From Pseudomonadota bacterium (GTDB lineage: Bacteria > UBA10199 > 2-02-FULL-44-16 > JAAZCA01), in contig JAZDOG010000038.1 in the NCBI GenBank assembly GCA_043798915.1, positions 1 to 35,104 of the forward strand: 35,104 nt of DNA, in the 5' to 3' direction. The first letter of the stretch is position 1, and every line of letters begins with the position of its first letter. Positions 12,301 through 18,300 of the stretch are shown here, one piece after another. The position numbers are program-made.

Positions 12301-15300
12301 TGGGGCCGGGTCGCCTCGGAGATAGTGGTGCCCCGTTTCAGGATGAACGGGCCTTACCTCTACATGCTGATCGGGATCGTGGGCACAACGATCGCGCCCT
12401 GGATGCAGTTCTACCAGCAGGCGGCGATCGTCGAGAAGGGGATCGATGTCGAGACATACCGGCACGCGCGATGGGACGTCATAATCGGATGCATAATGGC
12501 CGGCATAGTCGTATTCTTCATCGTCGTCGCCTGCGCCGCGACCATATTCCCGGCCGGCGGGCACGTGGAGACAGCGGCGGACGCCGCGGTGGCGCTGAAG
12601 CCGCTCGCCGGAAAATACTGCTCCTGGCTCTTCGCCTTCGGCCTCTTCAATGCGTCGCTCTTCGCGGCATCTGTCCTGCCGCTGTCGACCGCCTACTACG
12701 TCTGCGAGGGGCTGGGCTTCGAGGCCGGGGTGAACAAGAAGTTTAAGGAAGCGCCTCAATTCTACGGTCTCTTCACCGCGATCATCATCGTGGGCGCAAT
12801 CGTCATCCTGATCCCGGGATTTCCGCTCTTCTTCATCATGGTCTTCTCACAGGTGATCAACGGCATCCTGCTCCCCTTCATCCTCATCTTCATGCTCATG
12901 CTCATCAACCGCGAGGATATCATGGGCACATGGACGAACGGCCGCATCTGGAACGCAGTTTCGTGGTTCACAGCGTTCGCTATGATCGCCCTGACGATAG
13001 GCATGTTCGCAGCTTATTTTTAAATTCCATCATACCCCGAGGATGTGAGAGAGGATCACGATGGCGAGGTCTTCCTTGGGCAGTAGCGGAAGAGCGATTT
13101 TCTTTCCGCTCCGGCTGATGAGGAGGGCGCGGCTCACCCTGGCGCCGATCGCACAGGCGGGATTGGCGACTATCCAGTCGCAGTTCTTGCGCGCGAGTTT
13201 CCCGCGTGCATTTTTTTCGAGATCGTCCGTCTCGAGCGCGAAGCCGATCAATATCTGATTCGGCTTTTTTCTTTTTCCCAGCTCAAGGAGAATATCGGGG
13301 TTTTCTATCAGAGGGATAGCGTGCGGCATCTCCCCTCCTTTGTAAGGAGGGGATGGGGGAGGTAGACCTGTTTTGCTGCGTTTGATCTTTTTTCTTGAGA
13401 ACCGAGCCGGCCGCCAGTCGGAGACCGCAGCAGCCATGACGATCACGTCAGCGCGCGGCGCCAGGCGCATCACCTCGCGCCGCATCTCAAGGGTTGAGGC
13501 GACATCGATGCGGATCGCCCCCTCCGGCGTCGGCAGGGCCACCGGTCCGGCGATCAGATCGACACGAAATCCCAGATGGGCCGCCGCGCGGGCCAGCGCA
13601 AACCCCATCTGCCCCGAGGAATCGTTGGAGATATAGCGGACTGGATCGATGTATTCGCGCGTTGGCCCGGCGGTAATTAGGATGCGAAGTTTTTTGTTAT
13701 GTTTTGGTCTCACAACTTGCTGTCATTCTGAGCGAAGCGAAGAATCCCCCTGACCCAAGGGGATCCTTCGCTGTCGCTCAGGATGACATCATAGAATTTT
13801 CGTTATCTGCGCAATGATGTCCGCCGGCTCAGGCAACCTGCCCTTCCCCTTGTAGCCGCAGGCGAGATCGCCTTCCGTCGGCTCGATAATCCGATAGCCG
13901 TGTTTCACGAGCCTCTCCACGTTCTCCTGCACGATCGGGTTTTTCCACATATTGGCGTTCATCGACGGAGCGAATACGACAGGCGCCTGAGTGGCGCATA
14001 TCACGGCCGTCAGAAGCTCGTCGCAGATCCCGCACGCGACCTTGGCGATCAGATCGGCGGTGGCCGGCGCCACGAGGATCAAGTCGGCGGCATCAGCGAG
14101 CGATATATGGCCGATCTCCCTCTCCTGGATCAGGCTGAACATGTCGGTGTAAACGGGATTCGCGGATATAGTCTGCAGCGTCAGAGGGGTTACAAACTGT
14201 GCCCCGGCGCGGGTCAGCACGCAGCGGAGATCCGCGCCATCCTTCACGATCAGCCGGGCCAGTTCGCAGCACTTGTACGCCGCGATCCCCCCTCCGATCC
14301 CGAGGACCAGAGTCTTCCCTGCAAATTGTTTTGCCATTATAACCTCCAGGTGAAATCAGAATAGGAGGAAAGGAATTGGCTTGCAAGCGGAACCTGCAGC
14401 AGTGGACCACGATTAACGTGGCGAAAAATGAGGAGGTGTTAAGGGAGGGGTCGCAGGTGCAGGGCGCACTTCGCTCGCTATTCCTCGTCAAAAGATCGTA
14501 TAGGTTTGTGAAACTTAAATGTCCTCCGTTGTCGGCCTTTAAGTTTCCAAACCATTACGACTTTTGACTTCGGAATACGCTCGTCTCGTAAACGCGCCTT
14601 TAGCACCGTACGACCCCTCCCTTAACACCTCCTCATTTTTCGCTCCGAGGACTGCCCTTAGCTTGAAATCACAAATTGTGATTTCAAGTTTTTGTTGTGC
14701 CTTTTTGCCCCTGCCCTGGTGGTTCTGAATCCCACATTTCTCGATAGGCTTGGACATAGGAGATCGCAGCTGAGGGGTTGATATCATAATAGTAGCGGCA
14801 GAGTTTTTTGTAGAGAAGGAGCACGTTCGGATCAAAGCTAAAATCGAGCAACCCATCCAAAGTATGTTCAATATGCTTGTTATCACTGCATCCTGTAGAC
14901 AGGATATCCTCTACAACAGGCACATACTCCTGAACCGCCCGACGGGCAAGGTGTTGCGTAGCCCGCGCCAACTCGACAATTGATTGCTTGGCAGCAAGTC
15001 TTCTTCTCATGGATAAAATCCCCAGATTGCCATCGATCATATTTTTTTCAGAAGCTTTTTGTCAGTTGGCTTATGGAGATAGTTTTTGGAGGTGACAACC
15101 TTGGCGCCAGTTTCTATCTCCAATTTCTTTCTCGCATCTCCGGCAATCTTGCCGCCTGATCGTGCGACTCGCTTATTTTCATCAAAACCCTGAGCATCCT
15201 TCCTTCTTGCTATCTCCGTGGTCGAAGCCTCGCCAAGCATTGAAAAAATAAGTTCAAGGTCCGTCATGTGATCACGCAAGTTTTCGCGATCAAGCCCTTT

Positions 15301-18300
15301 GTGTTCTTTATACTCACTTGGTGTCATACCAAAAGCGGCCTTTGAGATCTCGGCCGTCAATATCGAATATTCCCTTTGTTCCTCAATTCCTCTTTTCTGC
15401 CACTCATCCGTCAATTCTTCACGGACAGCAATGCCTCGAATCCTTTTTTCGATCCATGCAGCAGGATAACCCTTTGCCTTGTATATTGCCTTCGTTCGCC
15501 TCGTGGCTATCTCTGGGTCTTCGATCTCCTGGATACGTTCATAACCGACCTTGGCAAGCCATCTTTTGAATGGTTCTGCTTTGGGGGATGGGATCGATTG
15601 GACAACGCGAAACACGGTTTCGGTATTGGCGCAATCCGTCTCATAGTACTTGCCATCCGATGAGATCAATTTCAGTTGTACGATTTTATCGTACAACTCG
15701 GTGAATCCCTCTTTTTCCTTTAGATTTCGTTTTAAGTCCGACCAATAGCGTCTTGGATTGGCACTCTCGGTCAATACTTCCACAACATCGATTATCGAGA
15801 ACCACCATTCACCCTTATGGATGATTTTCCTGATCTCCTCCCCCCTAAAGATAGCAATTCTTGTCTCCATGAAGGCCCTCCTATCATTTCATATATCCAA
15901 ACAGTCTTTATCTCAACCAAATTATCAATGTATTATGCATAGTTATGTCCATTTTGCAGACTTATAAGTTTCTTTCTTAGCAGCTTCCTCACAATCCGGG
16001 ATAAAGCAAGAATCGTTCCAAGAGCAGGCCTCTTCTATCTTGTTGATATGCTTATGTTCTGGTCCTTGGCCGGAAAAGATTGGTGCATCGTTTCGATGCA
16101 GCCTGCATCAAAAATGGGCAACGGGTGGACTAAAAAAGGGGCCCGAACCGGATAGACAGGTAACACTTTGATCCGGGGACATGGGTGACACTATGGAGGG
16201 TGCACCGTTTTTTGTGGAGCTGGGAAAGACCCGCAGACCGGCCAAAAGCGAGGCGTTGCACTGCCTCCCCACGCGGCGTATAAAATGTGCAATATTACTA
16301 TGCGCATCCGAATGAAGAGAGCCTTTATTTTATTGTTGGCGCCCCTTGTTTTATTTGGCGCCTCTATAATTTCTTGCGCAAAAGTCTCTTTGCCCGAAAC
16401 AGCTGCGTTCGGCAAAGTTCAAAACTTGCCTGAAGTCCAATTATTTATGGCCAAGGTCAATAAGGCTGGAAATGATGTCAGGCCAATCATCAGGCAGGAA
16501 GAAAGCGACGCGAGCAGCGGCAATCTCATTGAGTTCTATGTTGGAGAGTCTCATCCAACACACAATGTGCTTTGGAACAGGTTTGCTGTCGATAAAACAA
16601 CGACACAGATTTTTGTTTTTGATGCAGAATCAGGTGAATATGTTTCGATTGAAGATTGGAGGAACAAACTGAAGTGATCCGTCATGCTCGTTTGCCAAGC
16701 CCGGCAAAACCCCGCAAACCGGCTCAAAGCGAGGCATTGCACTGCCTCCCCCGGCGGCGTATGAATTGCGAAATTCGGGCGGTTCAAAATGCGAGGTGAA
16801 GTATGAAGAAAGAACTTATTGTGAGACTTCATCAGAGCTTCGATGCCATTGCCAACGAAAAAAATGGAGTTGAGTATTGGCTGGCGCGGGAACTTCAGAC
16901 GTTGCTGGAATACACTGAATGGCGAAATTTTGTGCAGGTCATCGATAAGGCCAAGACAACATGTATAACAGCAGGGCAGGCCATTTCTGACCATTTTGTT
17001 GACGTCAACAAAATGGTTCCATTGGGTTCTGGGAGCGAGCGAAACAATAAAGGGGGTCATAAAGGGGGTCAAGTCTGGACATTGGACAGTCGGTTTCTTT
17101 ATTTGGACAAGGAGCGAAAAACGAGGATGTGTTAAGGGAGGGGTCGTACGGTGCTAAAAGCGCATTTACGAGACGAACGATGACGAAGTCAAAAGTCGTG
17201 GTGGTTTGGAAACTTAAAGGCCGACAACGGAGGACATTTAAGTTTCACAAACCCACACGACCTTTTGACGAGGAATAGCGAGCGAAGTGCGCCCTGCACC
17301 TACGACCCCTCCCTTACACATCCTCGTTTTTCGCCACGCTGACACACAGGAGATCGATATGACCGCTAAACTTACGAGCACGGAGAAGAAGACGCTGCTT
17401 GAACTGGCTCGCACGACCATCGCTCGCTACCTCGCCGACGGGTCGAAGCCAGAGCTGCCAGAAGCAAAGGGCGTGCTGGGCGAGATATGCGGGGCGTTCG
17501 TCACGCTCCACAAGCGGAATAATTTGAGGGGCTGCATCGGTAACATGATCGGGCGCGGACCGCTGGTCGAGACGATCCAGGATATGGCGATAGCCGCGGC
17601 GACCGAAGATCCTAGATTTCCGCGGGTGAAGCCCGACGAACTCAAGGATATCGACATCGAGATCTCCGTCCTCTCGCCGATGAGGAAGATCAAGGACGTG
17701 AGCGAGATCGAAGTCGGCGTGCATGGCATACTCATGCGCAACGGTTTCAACCAGGGCGTGCTCCTGCCTCAGGTCGCCACGGAATGGAAATGGAACCGCG
17801 AGGAGTTCCTCCGCAACACCTGCCTCAAGGCAGGGCTCCCCACCGAGGCGTGGAAGGACTCAGCGACGATCATCGAAATATTCTCGGCAGAGGTATTCGG
17901 CGAAAAGCAGCGCTAGTCCGCGTTCGGGTTGTCGTCATGCTCGATCTTCATGGCAACCTTCGGTGCCCCCTCTTTCGGGAAGGGGTGGTGAACCGCGGCC
18001 GGCTTCACGAATTTCTCCACGACATCCCGGCTCCCTTTTATATTGAGCTTGGTGAAGAGCATGTCGAACTGGCGCGCTAGTTCGGACATGAGCGCGCTCT
18101 TCGTGTTGTCGGTGAGCGACCAGAGCTCGCGCTTGAACGTCCCATAACCTTTTTTGCGAGCCTTGTAGTAGAACTGCTCCGGCGTCATCCCGGGCTTCTT
18201 CTCCGACGCACAGTTTGAGTCGAGCCACTTGTAGATCTGCTCCTTCAGGTTTTTCGGGAAAGATGTCGAGTCGAAGAGCGTGTTCTGGAAGCCGGTCGCC

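Follow-up and report, generated by a model that had tools for sequence, protein, structure and literature searches.

The window, a stretch of 35,104 nt on contig C31 of the genome under study (G000), contains two inverted copies of a structured repeat, here termed E, which enclose four ORFs and lie between a coaC-type flavoprotein gene and an AMMECR1 gene (Table 1). The enclosed DNA (14646-17111, 2466 bp; the whole E-cargo-E block is 2.9 kb) has a GC content of 0.41-0.49 in 400-nt windows, compared with 0.577 for the genome, and the AMMECR1 start codon follows the 5' end of E2 by ~20 nt. AMMECR1 orthologues are present in 11 of 12 genomes of the family, and coaC and AMMECR1 are divergent neighbors at 8 of 10 loci examined in relatives, where the spacer measures 78-803 nt in seven and 2479 nt in one. 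A covariance model search with filters off found no E in the spacers of these eight relatives, while ~100 nt of spacer are left around the block in G000. On sequence comparison, the E-cargo-E block is an insertion in the coaC/AMMECR1 spacer relative to these eight relatives. Its outer borders display no target duplication.

Table 1. Features of the E-cargo-E block and its host flanks in the window.
Feature	Position	Strand	Evidence or remark
coaC-type flavoprotein gene, left host flank	13789..14337	-	PF02441 2e-31; reads away from E1
E1, left repeat copy	14417..14646	+	covariance model 155 bits, E 9e-40; 3' end towards cargo
E1 5' flank motif CGTG	14417-14420	+	
E1 3-nt tail TCC	14644-14646	+	
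Intrinsic-terminator-like 14-bp palindrome followed by T-run	14660..14690	+	terminator scan; just inside cargo
Cargo ORF, 118 aa	14684..15040	-	no match in four family libraries
Cargo ORF, 277 aa, BRO-N/anti-repressor-like	15037..15870	-	PADLOC candidate family PDC-S13
72-nt dispersed repeat, copy 1 (family D1)	16222..16293	+	within cargo; unrelated to E
Cargo ORF, 130 aa	16285..16677	+	no family match
72-nt dispersed repeat, copy 2 (family D1)	16703..16774	+	within cargo
Truncated DinD/BRO-N-like gene	16803..17135	+	open frame continues into E2
REP-like unit and 22-nt linker	17046..17110	-	beside E2 3' end
E2, right repeat copy, inverted	17111..17338	-	covariance model 138 bits; 3' end towards cargo
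E2 tail	17111-17113	-	
E2 5' flank motif (CACG as read on the + strand)	17335-17338	-	
AMMECR1 gene, right host flank	17359..17916	+	PF01871 8e-58; reads away from E2

The 277-aa ORF matches PDLC04920 (1.4e-120), PF02498 Bro-N (1.5e-12), and phrog_15286 (8e-94). Of the 93 class genomes, 38 encode homologues, those in other families being up to 78% identical, and none of 29 such loci in other genomes has an E nearby. Since the 118-aa ORF overlaps this upstream gene by 4 nt, the two probably form one operon reading towards coaC. The predicted N-terminus of the 130-aa product resembles a lipoprotein signal. Homology of the truncated gene is limited to residues 1-82 of a ~288-aa family (NF008573 DinD, 4e-29, profile positions 1-83 of 288; PDLC04919, positions 1-83 of 281). 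Small repeats are also present. The segment 14646-14690 is itself one, with a second copy at C47:13833-13876 (91% identity), and the two D1 copies are 82% identical, with further copies on 7 other contigs. The REP-like unit beside E2 belongs to the repeat family found around the RAYT-like Y1 transposase genes of G000; on C72, E is followed by the same 3' tail and REP unit (51 nt, 92% identity). Because the outer stem of E1 and E2 is of the G000 type, while the cargo differs in GC content and its BRO-N protein is so similar to proteins of other families, we regard the repeats as native and the enclosed genes as horizontally acquired, on these sequence features.

As the genome-wide survey's note had stated, inverted E pairs enclose 2.4-2.5 kb of cargo on both C31 and C11, the second pair (C11:11465-14312) holding 2405 bp that encode a C5 methyltransferase, an HTH protein, and a 284-aa protein without assignment, probably a type II restriction-modification unit. 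Its description of the cargo as foreign defence genes fared less uniformly. The foreign, low-GC character and the enclosure by pairs stand, while the word defence is only partly right, because the cargo as a whole combines a restriction-modification system and a BRO-N defence candidate with toxin-antitoxin pairs and unknowns. PADLOC matched 3 of 18 relatives' ORFs checked, strongly in only one (16 of these ORFs lie inside tail-to-tail pairs and two, BrnT/BrnA, between a head-to-head pair), and on C31 it matched a candidate family only, the remainder being the truncated DinD-like gene and two unknowns. No cargo family was common to different genomes among the families identified in 8 relatives' pairs; many further ORFs in those pairs matched no family and stayed outside this comparison.

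E1 folds into a hairpin at 14421-14643 (−136.9 kcal/mol, z −15.5), a stability reached by none of 200 shuffles, and its outer 33-nt arms are 100% complementary. E2, with its hairpin at 17114-17334 (−129.1 kcal/mol, z −13.8), is the reverse complement of E1, with inverted arms of 133 nt (95%) and 69 nt (93%) and an overall identity of 92%. Each of the 26 copies folded (7 from G000, 19 from relatives) gives a single nested hairpin of 196-242 nt; the long outer stem is universal, and the extension to ~220 nt, which the note had ascribed to this genome, is not special to it. The unit is a rod of 200-240 nt with a conserved apical loop and two conserved asymmetric internal-loop regions, while its helices, outer stem included, are free in sequence provided that the arms remain complementary. 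In the copies examined, the outer stem (~35 bp, range 30-45 bp) has a lineage- or copy-specific sequence and arms that still pair. The core is 70-79% identical across genera and recognizable class-wide.

In an alignment of 25 sequences, 94.6% of the cells form pairs, with compensation in 23 of 36 pairs. The covariation score of 0.403 exceeds that of shuffled alignments (0.173; reached by 0 of 500) and of slid partners (0.04-0.09), in agreement with the strong covariation reported before. Two-sided changes in paired cells outnumber one-sided (wobble) changes 125 to 18. A strand bias of G:U pairs, previously considered modest, is gone when helix-internal positions alone are counted (92 versus 66 with RNA parameters, 29 versus 44 with DNA parameters); wobble intermediates are rare and without clear strand bias. 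Compensation extends to the outer stems, with 17 cells over 11 columns in the 7 own copies (7 of these cells unique to a single copy) and 32 cells over 21 columns in the G008 copies. E is a real structured repeat, covarying and found across the class.

An independently built covariance model again yielded 9 distinct full-length copies in G000 among 12 matches, the others being 2 antisense echoes of the same copies and 1 weak fragment; BLAST found 7 full copies and one 57-nt fragment. The element is carried by 32 of 93 class genomes (31 in the earlier count), with the highest number in G041 (31 matches with strict and 42 with laxer filters). As before, Rfam gave no match at gathering thresholds, with only plant miRNA-precursor noise at E-values up to 10, and the plasmid and phage collections gave none. 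The apical-loop motif had 0 matches in viral contigs.

E has recently duplicated to unrelated sites. Two contigs of G017 carry versions of a 236-nt unit that are 3 differences apart and end sharply against unrelated flanks, without target duplication, while in G041 a ~480-nt tail-to-tail doublet recurs whole at 4 loci. In G000, 7 copies have one outer stem in common, and similarity ends within 4 nt of the hairpin on the 5' side and 3-17 nt on the 3' side. No target duplication was found around any near-identical copies at unrelated sites. Neighboring copies are biased in orientation, lying tail-to-tail in 19 of 28 cases within 10 kb (over 9 genomes), 16 of 20 within 3 kb, and 10 of 10 within 400 nt. 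The tendency of the 3' side to face low-GC DNA was likewise recovered. Among own copies whose 800-nt flanks could be measured, it holds for 7 of 8. In the whole set of 56 unique copies, which includes pair loci fetched deliberately, it holds for 39, and for 25 of 27 when the two sides differ by >0.05. Filled pairs occur in G000, G017, and G012. Empty doublets, with spacers of tens of nucleotides and, in G041, a short perfect palindrome at the center, occur in G041, G015, G009, G042, and G075.

These observations may be accounted for by a non-autonomous hairpin DNA repeat, REPIN-like and much larger, that persists vertically in the class and at whose 3' sides and doublet centers foreign DNA gathers, a reading to which we give an even chance. 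The near-identical G017 units, the G041 doublets, and the sharp borders in G000 argue for mobility or duplication. The excess of two-sided changes, the lack of a clear wobble strand bias, and the outer-stem compensation point to DNA-like, hairpin-preserving evolution. The REPIN- or MITE-like element would be kept vertically and spread within genomes without target-site duplication, with the two internal-loop regions presumably serving as recognition sites for a trans-acting enzyme and a single-stranded hairpin as the likely intermediate. Units tend to lie tail-to-tail, and foreign low-GC DNA occurs in the stretch between the tails, or more generally on the 3' side, either because cargo would enter an existing doublet or because E copies would settle around cargo. 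In the window, two native copies bracket 2.47 kb of acquired genes in a ~100-nt spacer. If this reading is true, E is a new mobile DNA element of REPIN-like type, and accessory genes gather in its tail-to-tail pairs. Several points count against it. No mobilizing enzyme was found for E, and no identified cargo family recurs between genomes in the relatives' pairs covered above. The conservation of E is unusually deep for a selfish repeat, which suggests a host-level or RNA-level constraint. The possible promoter box of G013 and the copies close behind stop codons, both described below, likewise weigh against it.

PMC3116915 describes REPINs as inverted doublets forming hairpins, in which compensatory changes are common on both arms and singlets are remnants. 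They resemble E in being extragenic and non-autonomous, with hairpin units, over-represented inverted doublets, and singlets beside doublets, and they too are reported to persist for long in a lineage. The differences are considerable. An E unit of 200-240 nt is a complete hairpin alone, while a REP has 20-40 nt and a REPIN hairpin needs two of them; the conserved part of E is central and apical, with variable termini, while that of REPINs is terminal; and E pairs, unlike REPINs, enclose foreign cargo. To our knowledge, no described REPIN- or MITE-like family approaches E in size. The RAYT-like genes of G000 have their own, different 27-nt REP, and among the matches listed E neither flanks a Y1 gene nor has one within ~10 kb of any copy. 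Y1 transposases occur in 71 of 93 class genomes, E-free ones included, and their presence does not track that of E. The HUH/Y1 mechanism leaves no target duplication, and there is likewise none at E.

It is unlikely, although this is the strongest of the alternatives, that E is a structured non-coding RNA or a cis-acting mRNA element, with a functional ~150-nt conserved core, copies transcribed by read-through from neighbors, and the variable complementary outer stem as a helix for processing or protection, comparable to RNase III stems flanking rRNA or to REP-type 3'-UTR stabilizers. Conserved internal and apical loops alternate with covarying helices, and some copies bear an additional ~27-nt hairpin at one place in the 5' arm, much like the variable-length stems of RNA families. 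In G013, E lies within a longer ~340-nt repeat with a conserved TAnAAT box ~30 nt upstream, which could be a promoter. C11a and C12 follow the stop codon of a gene in the same orientation at 15 nt and 16 nt, and a crude ORF survey that miscalled at least one known locus places the start of many copies no more than 25 nt from the stop of such an upstream gene, which would also fit a 3'-UTR element. The window's cargo genes read outwards, across both E copies into coaC and AMMECR1, so those mRNAs probably include E in reverse complement. However, one-sided changes are rare, the excess of G:U over A:C is consistent on neither strand, the apical loop of C11a is flipped to its complement, and the same survey places copies in both orientations relative to adjacent genes. 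Perfect RNA duplexes of 30-45 bp are RNase III substrates, as the outer stems would be, and tail-to-tail clustering and GC polarity have no obvious RNA rationale. Given also that 5' flanks are unconserved in G000 and G008, that Rfam is empty, and that a scan found no promoter-like site within E, there is no sign of an independent RNA gene.

Somewhat less probable still, the tail-to-tail doublet would be a dedicated gene-capture site, at which E, folded or as a cruciform, is recognized by a recombinase encoded elsewhere that inserts foreign DNA between the 3' tails, by a logic like that of integron attC/attI or dif-flanked modules. The orientation and polarity counts above, the empty doublets with their short spacers, and the diverse cargo, in which one IS in G012 is the only source of an integrase or transposase gene, are as expected; DDE_Tnp_1_4 copies of this kind occur in G012 at only two places, both inside E pairs. 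Like E, attC sites are imperfect palindromes, better conserved in structure than in sequence, that adjoin promoter-poor foreign genes, often of defence or toxin-antitoxin type, without mobility genes. They are 57-141 nt long, carry RYYYAAC/GTTRRRY core sites, and stand in direct orientation, one per cassette, beside intI. E is larger, forms inverted pairs, and is conserved at its center instead of its ends; no such core sites were seen at its conserved positions. Against capture, no recombinase is linked to E, no locus was seen in both empty and filled state, and empty-doublet and filled-pair genomes barely overlap in this sample. Members of G017 pairs come from different subfamilies without a fixed left/right pattern, and many solo copies have ordinary genes of normal GC on both sides. 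Inverted sites that recombine flip the DNA between them and do not excise it, so that cassettes would have to turn over in some other way.

Composite or MITE-flanked units also place two small non-autonomous repeats around genes without a transposase. They have DDE-type terminal repeats and a target duplication at their outer borders, neither of which the window pair has, and the strong orientation bias of E pairs is not expected of symmetric terminal repeats. No transposase accompanying E and no parent IS with E ends were found; the DDE transposase found in a relatives' E pair is not present in 4 other E-bearing genomes.

We consider it improbable that E copies are passive fragile sites, at which palindromes stall forks, hairpin nucleases cut, and illegitimate repair occasionally traps foreign DNA centrally (a central insertion would stabilize the palindrome, so that filled pairs persist), since this leaves the class-wide conservation of the asymmetric and apical loops, the spread of whole units and doublets, and the 3' polarity of solo copies unexplained, and since doublet members often have unrelated outer stems, which makes the doublet a poor palindrome. 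Consistent with fragility, junctions have no target duplication and nothing in common beyond the E tails, the cargo is heterogeneous, with a broken gene and small repeats (the DinD-like gene, the REP unit, and the 72-nt repeat), and long hairpins unrelated to E occupy this coaC/AMMECR1 spacer in G012 and G020.

By description rather than sequence, E may also be likened to ERIC/IRU and Correia-type elements, which are intergenic imperfect palindromes of ~100-170 nt with tens of copies, conserved beyond species and often co-transcribed. Correia elements end in inverted repeats and duplicate a TA target, whereas E shows no duplication. We know of no description of either group as bracketing foreign genes in fixed polarity. 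E is longer than these elements and has copy-specific outer stems.

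The cargo enclosed by the two window copies of the hairpin repeat E, E1 and E2, is 2466 bp long and has a GC content of 0.41 to 0.49 in 400-nt windows versus 0.577 for the genome, and both copies turn their 3′ ends toward it. The flanking coaC-type flavoprotein and AMMECR1 genes are divergent neighbors in 8 of 10 loci from relatives, the other two contigs being too short to hold both. These eight spacers (78, 110, 384, 606, 608, 703, 803, and 2479 nt) contained no E when the covariance model of E was run with its filters off, and in the window genome (G000) ~100 nt of spacer is left outside the 2.9-kb block. 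By sequence comparison, this E-cargo-E block represents an insertion. When metagenomes were scanned with AMMECR1 for close relatives suited to strain comparison, nothing above 77% identity was returned, and a DNA search of two loci of the relative G018 against G019 recovered one flank or other repeats only. Three coaC/AMMECR1 spacers hold other long hairpins that are unmatched by the E model (L081 of G012, L082 of G019, and L084 of G020); the G012 hairpin spans ~165 nt with a perfect 31-bp outer stem, and in G020 a ~220-nt inverted-repeat structure lies beside a 552-aa ORF. Hairpin repeats appear to have settled in this spacer repeatedly.

Features of the window and related loci (window positions unless a contig or locus is named; contigs are from G000 unless stated)
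Feature	Coordinates	Strand	Remarks
coaC-type flavoprotein gene	13789-14337	minus	left host flank, reads away from block
E1 hairpin	14421-14643	plus	
Terminator-like palindrome	14660-14690		also elsewhere in genome
118-aa ORF	14684-15040	minus	overlaps 277-aa gene; no family match
277-aa BRO-N/anti-repressor-like gene	15037-15870	minus	PADLOC candidate PDC-S13 (PDLC04920, 1.4e-120)
72-nt repeat, two copies	16222-16293 and 16703-16774		82% identity, internal GC-rich hairpin
130-aa ORF	16285-16677	plus	no family match
Truncated DinD-like gene	16803-17135	plus	homology limited to residues 1-82
REP-like unit	17046-17090		also elsewhere in genome
E2 hairpin	17114-17334	minus	
AMMECR1 gene	17359-17916	plus	right host flank, reads away from block
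Second E pair of G000	C11:11465-14312		
E copy C11a	C11:11465-11684 (L015:5466-5685)		
RAYT-like genes	C71:1-1000, C93:1-1030, C97:1-210		
Decayed E copies	C80:234-290 and C75:248-268		
Ser/Thr kinase genes	C12:8931-10265 and C103:26326-27660		444 aa each, cyclic-nucleotide-binding domain
Low-GC island	C47:13500-23000 (L188)		GC 0.43-0.52, no E copy
DDE_Tnp_1_4 IS, G012	C2:704059-705471 and C1:428138-429003		one intact, one broken
~40-nt repeat, G018	L034:1350-1391		

E1 is a near-perfect hairpin whose outer 33-nt arms are 100% complementary, with a folding energy of −136.9 kcal/mol (z −15.5) that none of 200 shuffles equaled. E2 is the same element in reverse complement (−129.1 kcal/mol, z −13.8); as inverted repeats the two match over 133 nt at 95% and 69 nt at 93% and are 92% identical. 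The covariance model, built on 25 E sequences of which 6 come from G000 and 19 from relatives, comprises 157 positions and 36 base pairs. In the underlying alignment 94.6% of the cells are paired, 23 of the 36 core pairs are compensated by two-sided changes, and the covariation score is 0.403, versus 0.173 for 500 shuffles, none of which came up to it, and 0.04 to 0.09 for slid partners; the covariation figures of the genome-wide survey's note are thereby reproduced with an independent alignment. Sequence is conserved class-wide in three regions, a 5′-arm stretch, a 3′-arm stretch, and the 18-nt apical loop; these asymmetric regions set the orientation of E.

A single nested hairpin of 196 to 242 nt was obtained for all 26 E copies folded (with 50-nt flanks, or 10 nt for 7 own copies), relatives' copies included, so that an extension from ~140 to ~220 nt is not peculiar to G000, as had been proposed. 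The outer 30 to 45 bp vary among genera and are often unlike even between copies of one genome (as in G019, G018, and G012), the arms remaining complementary throughout; where copies are related, the differences are mostly compensated. The seven main G000 copies display 17 compensated outer-stem cells spread over 11 columns, 7 of them private to one copy, and those of the relative G008 display 32 in 21 columns. Uncompensated positions in the G000 outer stems proper number ~11 in a count by eye, the script totals having been set aside because they include flanks and conserved loops. An intrinsic terminator is a GC-rich hairpin with a U-run immediately after it. An A-run/T-run at the base of the outer stem is found in G000 and G041, the reversed arrangement in G013, and neither in G012; therefore, this terminator-like feature is not general to E. 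Optionally, an extra hairpin is present at one E position, and the G013 copies (L025, L035, and L041) lie within a longer, ~340-nt repeat in which ~85 nt before E and ~60 nt after it are shared. In C11a the ~20-nt apical loop is reverse-complemented relative to all other copies while the stems are unflipped, and the model scores the copy as an antisense partial match (positions 35 to 115, 47 bits). A parvovirus-like flip/flop was rejected, the inversion being limited to the loop between 10-bp top stems; it is also contradicted by the nonrandom orientation of E relative to cargo.

A BLAST search of the own genome (2.34 Mb in 105 contigs) finds 7 full E copies at 84 to 100% identity and one 57-nt fragment, and the newly built covariance model finds 9 distinct full-length copies, the number counted previously. 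Of the two decayed copies, that on C80 retains the first ~57 nt, fused to a different G-rich hairpin repeat, and that on C75 a 19- to 21-nt terminal fragment. Model matches occur in 32 of 93 class genomes, close to the one-third reported before, in 25 of the 63 high-quality ones, and in 10 of 12 same-family genomes other than our own; BLAST alone detects E in 13 of 93. The largest count per genome is 31 matches, or 42 with laxer filters; such copy numbers are lower bounds, as repeats break assemblies. The relatives are species representatives, many of them fragmented, and kinship among the genomes inflates every count. Neither the plasmid nor the phage collection contains a match, as had been stated, and a scan of viral contigs for the apical-loop motif found no E. 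In a collection of species-representative genomes the same motif picked out 11 stretches, 8 of which are confirmed by the E model and carry the labels Deltaproteobacteria, uncultured Myxococcales, or just bacterium; the other three, from other taxa, are not E and are chance matches according to the model. The claim that E belongs to no Rfam family also stands: the whole window gave 0 matches at gathering thresholds, and at relaxed ones the best were plant miRNA precursors (29 bits versus gathering scores of 100 to 297), which is generic long-hairpin noise.

The relative orientation of neighboring copies is strongly skewed. Counting two model matches at most 10 kb apart on one contig, among the matches listed, we obtained 28 pairs: 19 tail-to-tail (3′ ends facing), 3 head-to-head, and 6 direct. 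Within 3 kb the numbers are 16, 2, and 2 (20 pairs), and all 10 pairs within 400 nt are tail-to-tail. By chance, one quarter of the pairs should be tail-to-tail. The counts are non-independent, as the doublets of G041 copy one another, but they nevertheless come from nine genomes. The flanks are polar as well. In 39 of 56 unique copies the 800-nt flank on the 3′ side has the lower GC content, and where the flanks differ by more than 0.05 the 3′ side is lower in 25 of 27, in a sample enriched for pair loci fetched on purpose; lower GC on the 3′ side, claimed earlier, holds for 7 of 8 own copies. Many solo copies of G012 stand between genes of normal GC, and at the exceptional locus G017:C40 it is two E 5′ ends that enclose cargo, a BrnT/BrnA toxin-antitoxin pair. 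A fixed pairing of left-type with right-type ends, hinted at in G000 and G041, fails in G017.

The window cargo offers tentative grounds for a defense label. The 277-aa protein also matches Bro-N (1.5e-12) and phrog_15286, and PADLOC "PDC" families are predictions rather than tested systems, so that PDC-S13 marks a candidate only. The N terminus of the 130-aa protein looks lipoprotein-signal-like. Homologues of the BRO-N gene are present in 38 of 93 genomes, E-free ones among them, and identities of up to 78% in other families of the class point to horizontal transfer. A cargo-specific association was dropped, E being found within ~1.5 kb at 0 of 29 BRO-N loci in other genomes. Inside the second G000 pair are genes for a C5 cytosine methyltransferase and an HTH protein plus a 284-aa unknown, probably a type II restriction-modification unit. 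Pairs in relatives contain a ParE toxin, a dGTPase-like HD protein, a phosphate transporter with PhoU, an IS4-like DDE transposase, an FGE-sulfatase-like protein, a DUF559 endonuclease, a reverse-transcriptase fragment, a HEAT-repeat protein, and several very low-GC unknowns. PADLOC matches 3 of 18 relatives' ORFs (16 inside tail-to-tail pairs plus BrnT and BrnA of the G017:C40 head-to-head pair), strongly for the dGTPase only. Of the "foreign defense cargo" described in the survey's note, the defense part is only partly borne out and is tentative in the window. Many cargo ORFs have no family match, and among those that do, no family recurs between genomes; because of this, and because the 29 BRO-N loci inspected elsewhere lack E, we conclude that E is associated with foreign DNA generally, not with any particular system. 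Two paralogous Ser/Thr kinase genes of G000 were also seen near E: one ends 16 nt before a copy, and the other, which matches PADLOC PD-T4-6 kinase models, lies ~2 kb off the 3′ side of another.

There are signs that E is mobile or duplicated. A 236-nt E unit is found on two G017 contigs with 3 differences (98.7% identity); its borders are sharp, the flanks of the two copies are unrelated, and direct repeats are missing. Four G041 loci have in common a whole ~480-nt doublet consisting of a left hairpin, a short palindromic spacer, and a right hairpin. Target duplications were absent: no direct repeat borders the 7 G000 copies, the two pairs, or the two G017 copies. The four bases outside the window hairpins, CGTG and CACG, merely prolong the inverted symmetry. 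The 4 nt 5′ of the G000 hairpins (CGTG, CGTG, CACG, CATG, CGTG, CACG, and GCTG) loosely fit CRYG, possibly a target motif, and TCC is found on the 3′ side in 6 of 7.

Several enzymes were considered as partners of E. Y1 transposases (PF01797; IS200/RAYT) are encoded in 71 of 93 genomes, including both E-free family members (G010 and G014), versus E in 32 of 93, and none lies within ~10 kb of E among the matches listed, outside which are 70 Y1 and 107 E matches. RAYT was rejected as the E enzyme, since Y1_Tnp does not separate E-bearing from E-free genomes and none of the listed matches adjoins E. The RAYT-like genes of G000 encode ~320-aa proteins with a Y1 domain and a C-terminal, DnaA-like helix-turn-helix; they lie at contig ends between inverted copies of a 27-nt REP of their own, which is unlike E, and are a genuine REP/RAYT system. 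One REP unit is separated by 22 nt from the 3′ terminus of E2, an arrangement repeated beside E at C72; E and the 27-nt REP/RAYT are two separate repeat systems that adjoin by happenstance. In the complete genome G012 a DDE_Tnp_1_4 IS occurs at two places only, both inside tail-to-tail E pairs. It is absent from the E-bearing genomes G000, G017, G041, and G008, and a DDE transposase confined to G012 was rejected as the E enzyme. No transposase is common to the examined pairs, and no integrase domain was found in the 30 and 43 neighboring ORFs scanned, though no search aimed at an integron integrase was made.

Several observations bear on whether E acts as DNA or as RNA. Core cells changed on one side number 18 versus 125 changed on both, wobble intermediates being scarce. 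Helix-internal G:T pairs versus A:C mismatches in 63 unique copies amount to 92 versus 66 with RNA parameters and 29 versus 44 with DNA parameters; the strand bias of G:U pairs noted before (38 versus 17) is lost when helix-internal positions alone are counted. A promoter scan of positions 14200 to 17500 gave 4 sites versus 3.1 expected by chance, none inside E, and a conserved 5′ flank is lacking in G000 and G008. In favor of RNA, conserved loops are interspersed with covarying helices, the extra hairpin is optional, G013 copies carry a TAnAAT box ~30 nt before the hairpin, and several copies begin 15 to 16 nt past the end of a co-oriented coding sequence; a crude ORF survey of neighbor orientation is a hint only, as it miscalled the known AMMECR1 context. 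A DNA-level palindrome is favored given the scarce wobble, the absence of a G:T bias, the unconserved 5′ flanks, the lack of a promoter-like site, and the flipped C11a loop, and we consider it unlikely that E is a structured RNA.

By analogy, E most resembles the REPIN class. REPINs are extragenic hairpins with over-represented inverted doublets, compensated arms, and singlets beside doublets (PMC3116915). E is likewise extragenic and hairpin-forming, with over-represented inverted doublets (19 of 28 pairs), compensated arms (23 of 36 core pairs, and the outer stems too), and singlets beside doublets. REPINs reportedly persist vertically within a lineage, and E is similar in this respect. A REP is an imperfect palindrome of ~20 to 40 nt and a REPIN hairpin needs two inverted REPs and a spacer, whereas E is a hairpin on its own and five to ten times larger; the conserved part of a REPIN is terminal and that of E central, and no RAYT flanked by E is seen among the matches listed, nor does Y1 presence track that of E. 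DDE-type MITEs have a direct target-site duplication beside their terminal inverted repeats, and E does not fit them because it has no duplication. A MITE should also have a parent IS with the same ends; the examined pairs have no transposase in common and the G012 DDE_Tnp_1_4 IS is missing from four other E-bearing genomes, though no exhaustive IS search was made. Integron attC sites carry RYYYAAC...GTTRRRY cores at the base of a 57- to 141-nt hairpin and stand in direct orientation in an array, with an intI integrase gene and an attI site beside it. By inspection, the conserved columns of E have no such cores, its units measure 200 to 240 nt, and neighbors are inverted. Ends of the IS200/IS605 type (PATE-like) make no target duplication, insert 3′ of a fixed tetra- or pentanucleotide, and bear distinct subterminal hairpins at either end; E has no duplication and its CRYG-like tetranucleotide could be such a motif, but it is one giant hairpin, not two distinct end hairpins. 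A narrow full-text literature search returned REPIN papers and nothing describing an E-like element. Since E departs from REPINs, DDE-type MITEs, and attC sites, we set it apart as a newly described form of hairpin repeat, an assignment to which we give about an even chance and in which partner enzyme, single-stranded intermediate, and cargo route are inferred. Were E a REPIN-like replicator, a unit five to ten times the size of a REP would stretch the concept, its core would be conserved across a class versus a species group, and the absence of RAYT would imply that the conserved loop and the two asymmetric internal loops are read by a host protein or that some unknown enzyme is the partner.

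It is tempting to go further and regard E as a dedicated capture site, which we think doubtful, and the tail-to-tail doublets as an unrecognized chromosomal gene-capture platform, inherited vertically across the class with its enzyme encoded elsewhere, which is equally improbable. Here, selection acting on a single-stranded or cruciform form would keep two large hairpins of folded DNA complementary, and these would serve an enzyme that inserts mobility-free foreign DNA (restriction-modification, toxin-antitoxin, and candidate defense genes) between the 3′ tails. Such a platform would be like an integron in logic and differ in sites, geometry, and enzyme. That E is a passive fragile palindrome is very unlikely. 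With its fixed polarity toward foreign DNA and its tail-to-tail doublets, E offers a direct test of whether entry sites of accessory and defense genes in small genomes without obvious integrases are marked, created, or exploited by structured repeats. In practice, the covariance model can point to variable islands when metagenome-assembled genomes of the class are fragmented.

Other small repeats share these neighborhoods. The 72-nt repeat lies just upstream of each of the two plus-strand cargo ORFs and recurs on 7 further contigs (C61, C20, C68, C47, C98, C12, and C72); it may act as a movable promoter or 5′-UTR module, or be another small repeat family. The low-GC island on C47 has four small repeats in common with the window cargo, including the terminator-like palindrome adjoining E1. 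A further abundant family of small repeats in this lineage is the ~40-nt repeat of G018, of which G019 has dozens of almost identical copies (38 of the 41 matches listed).
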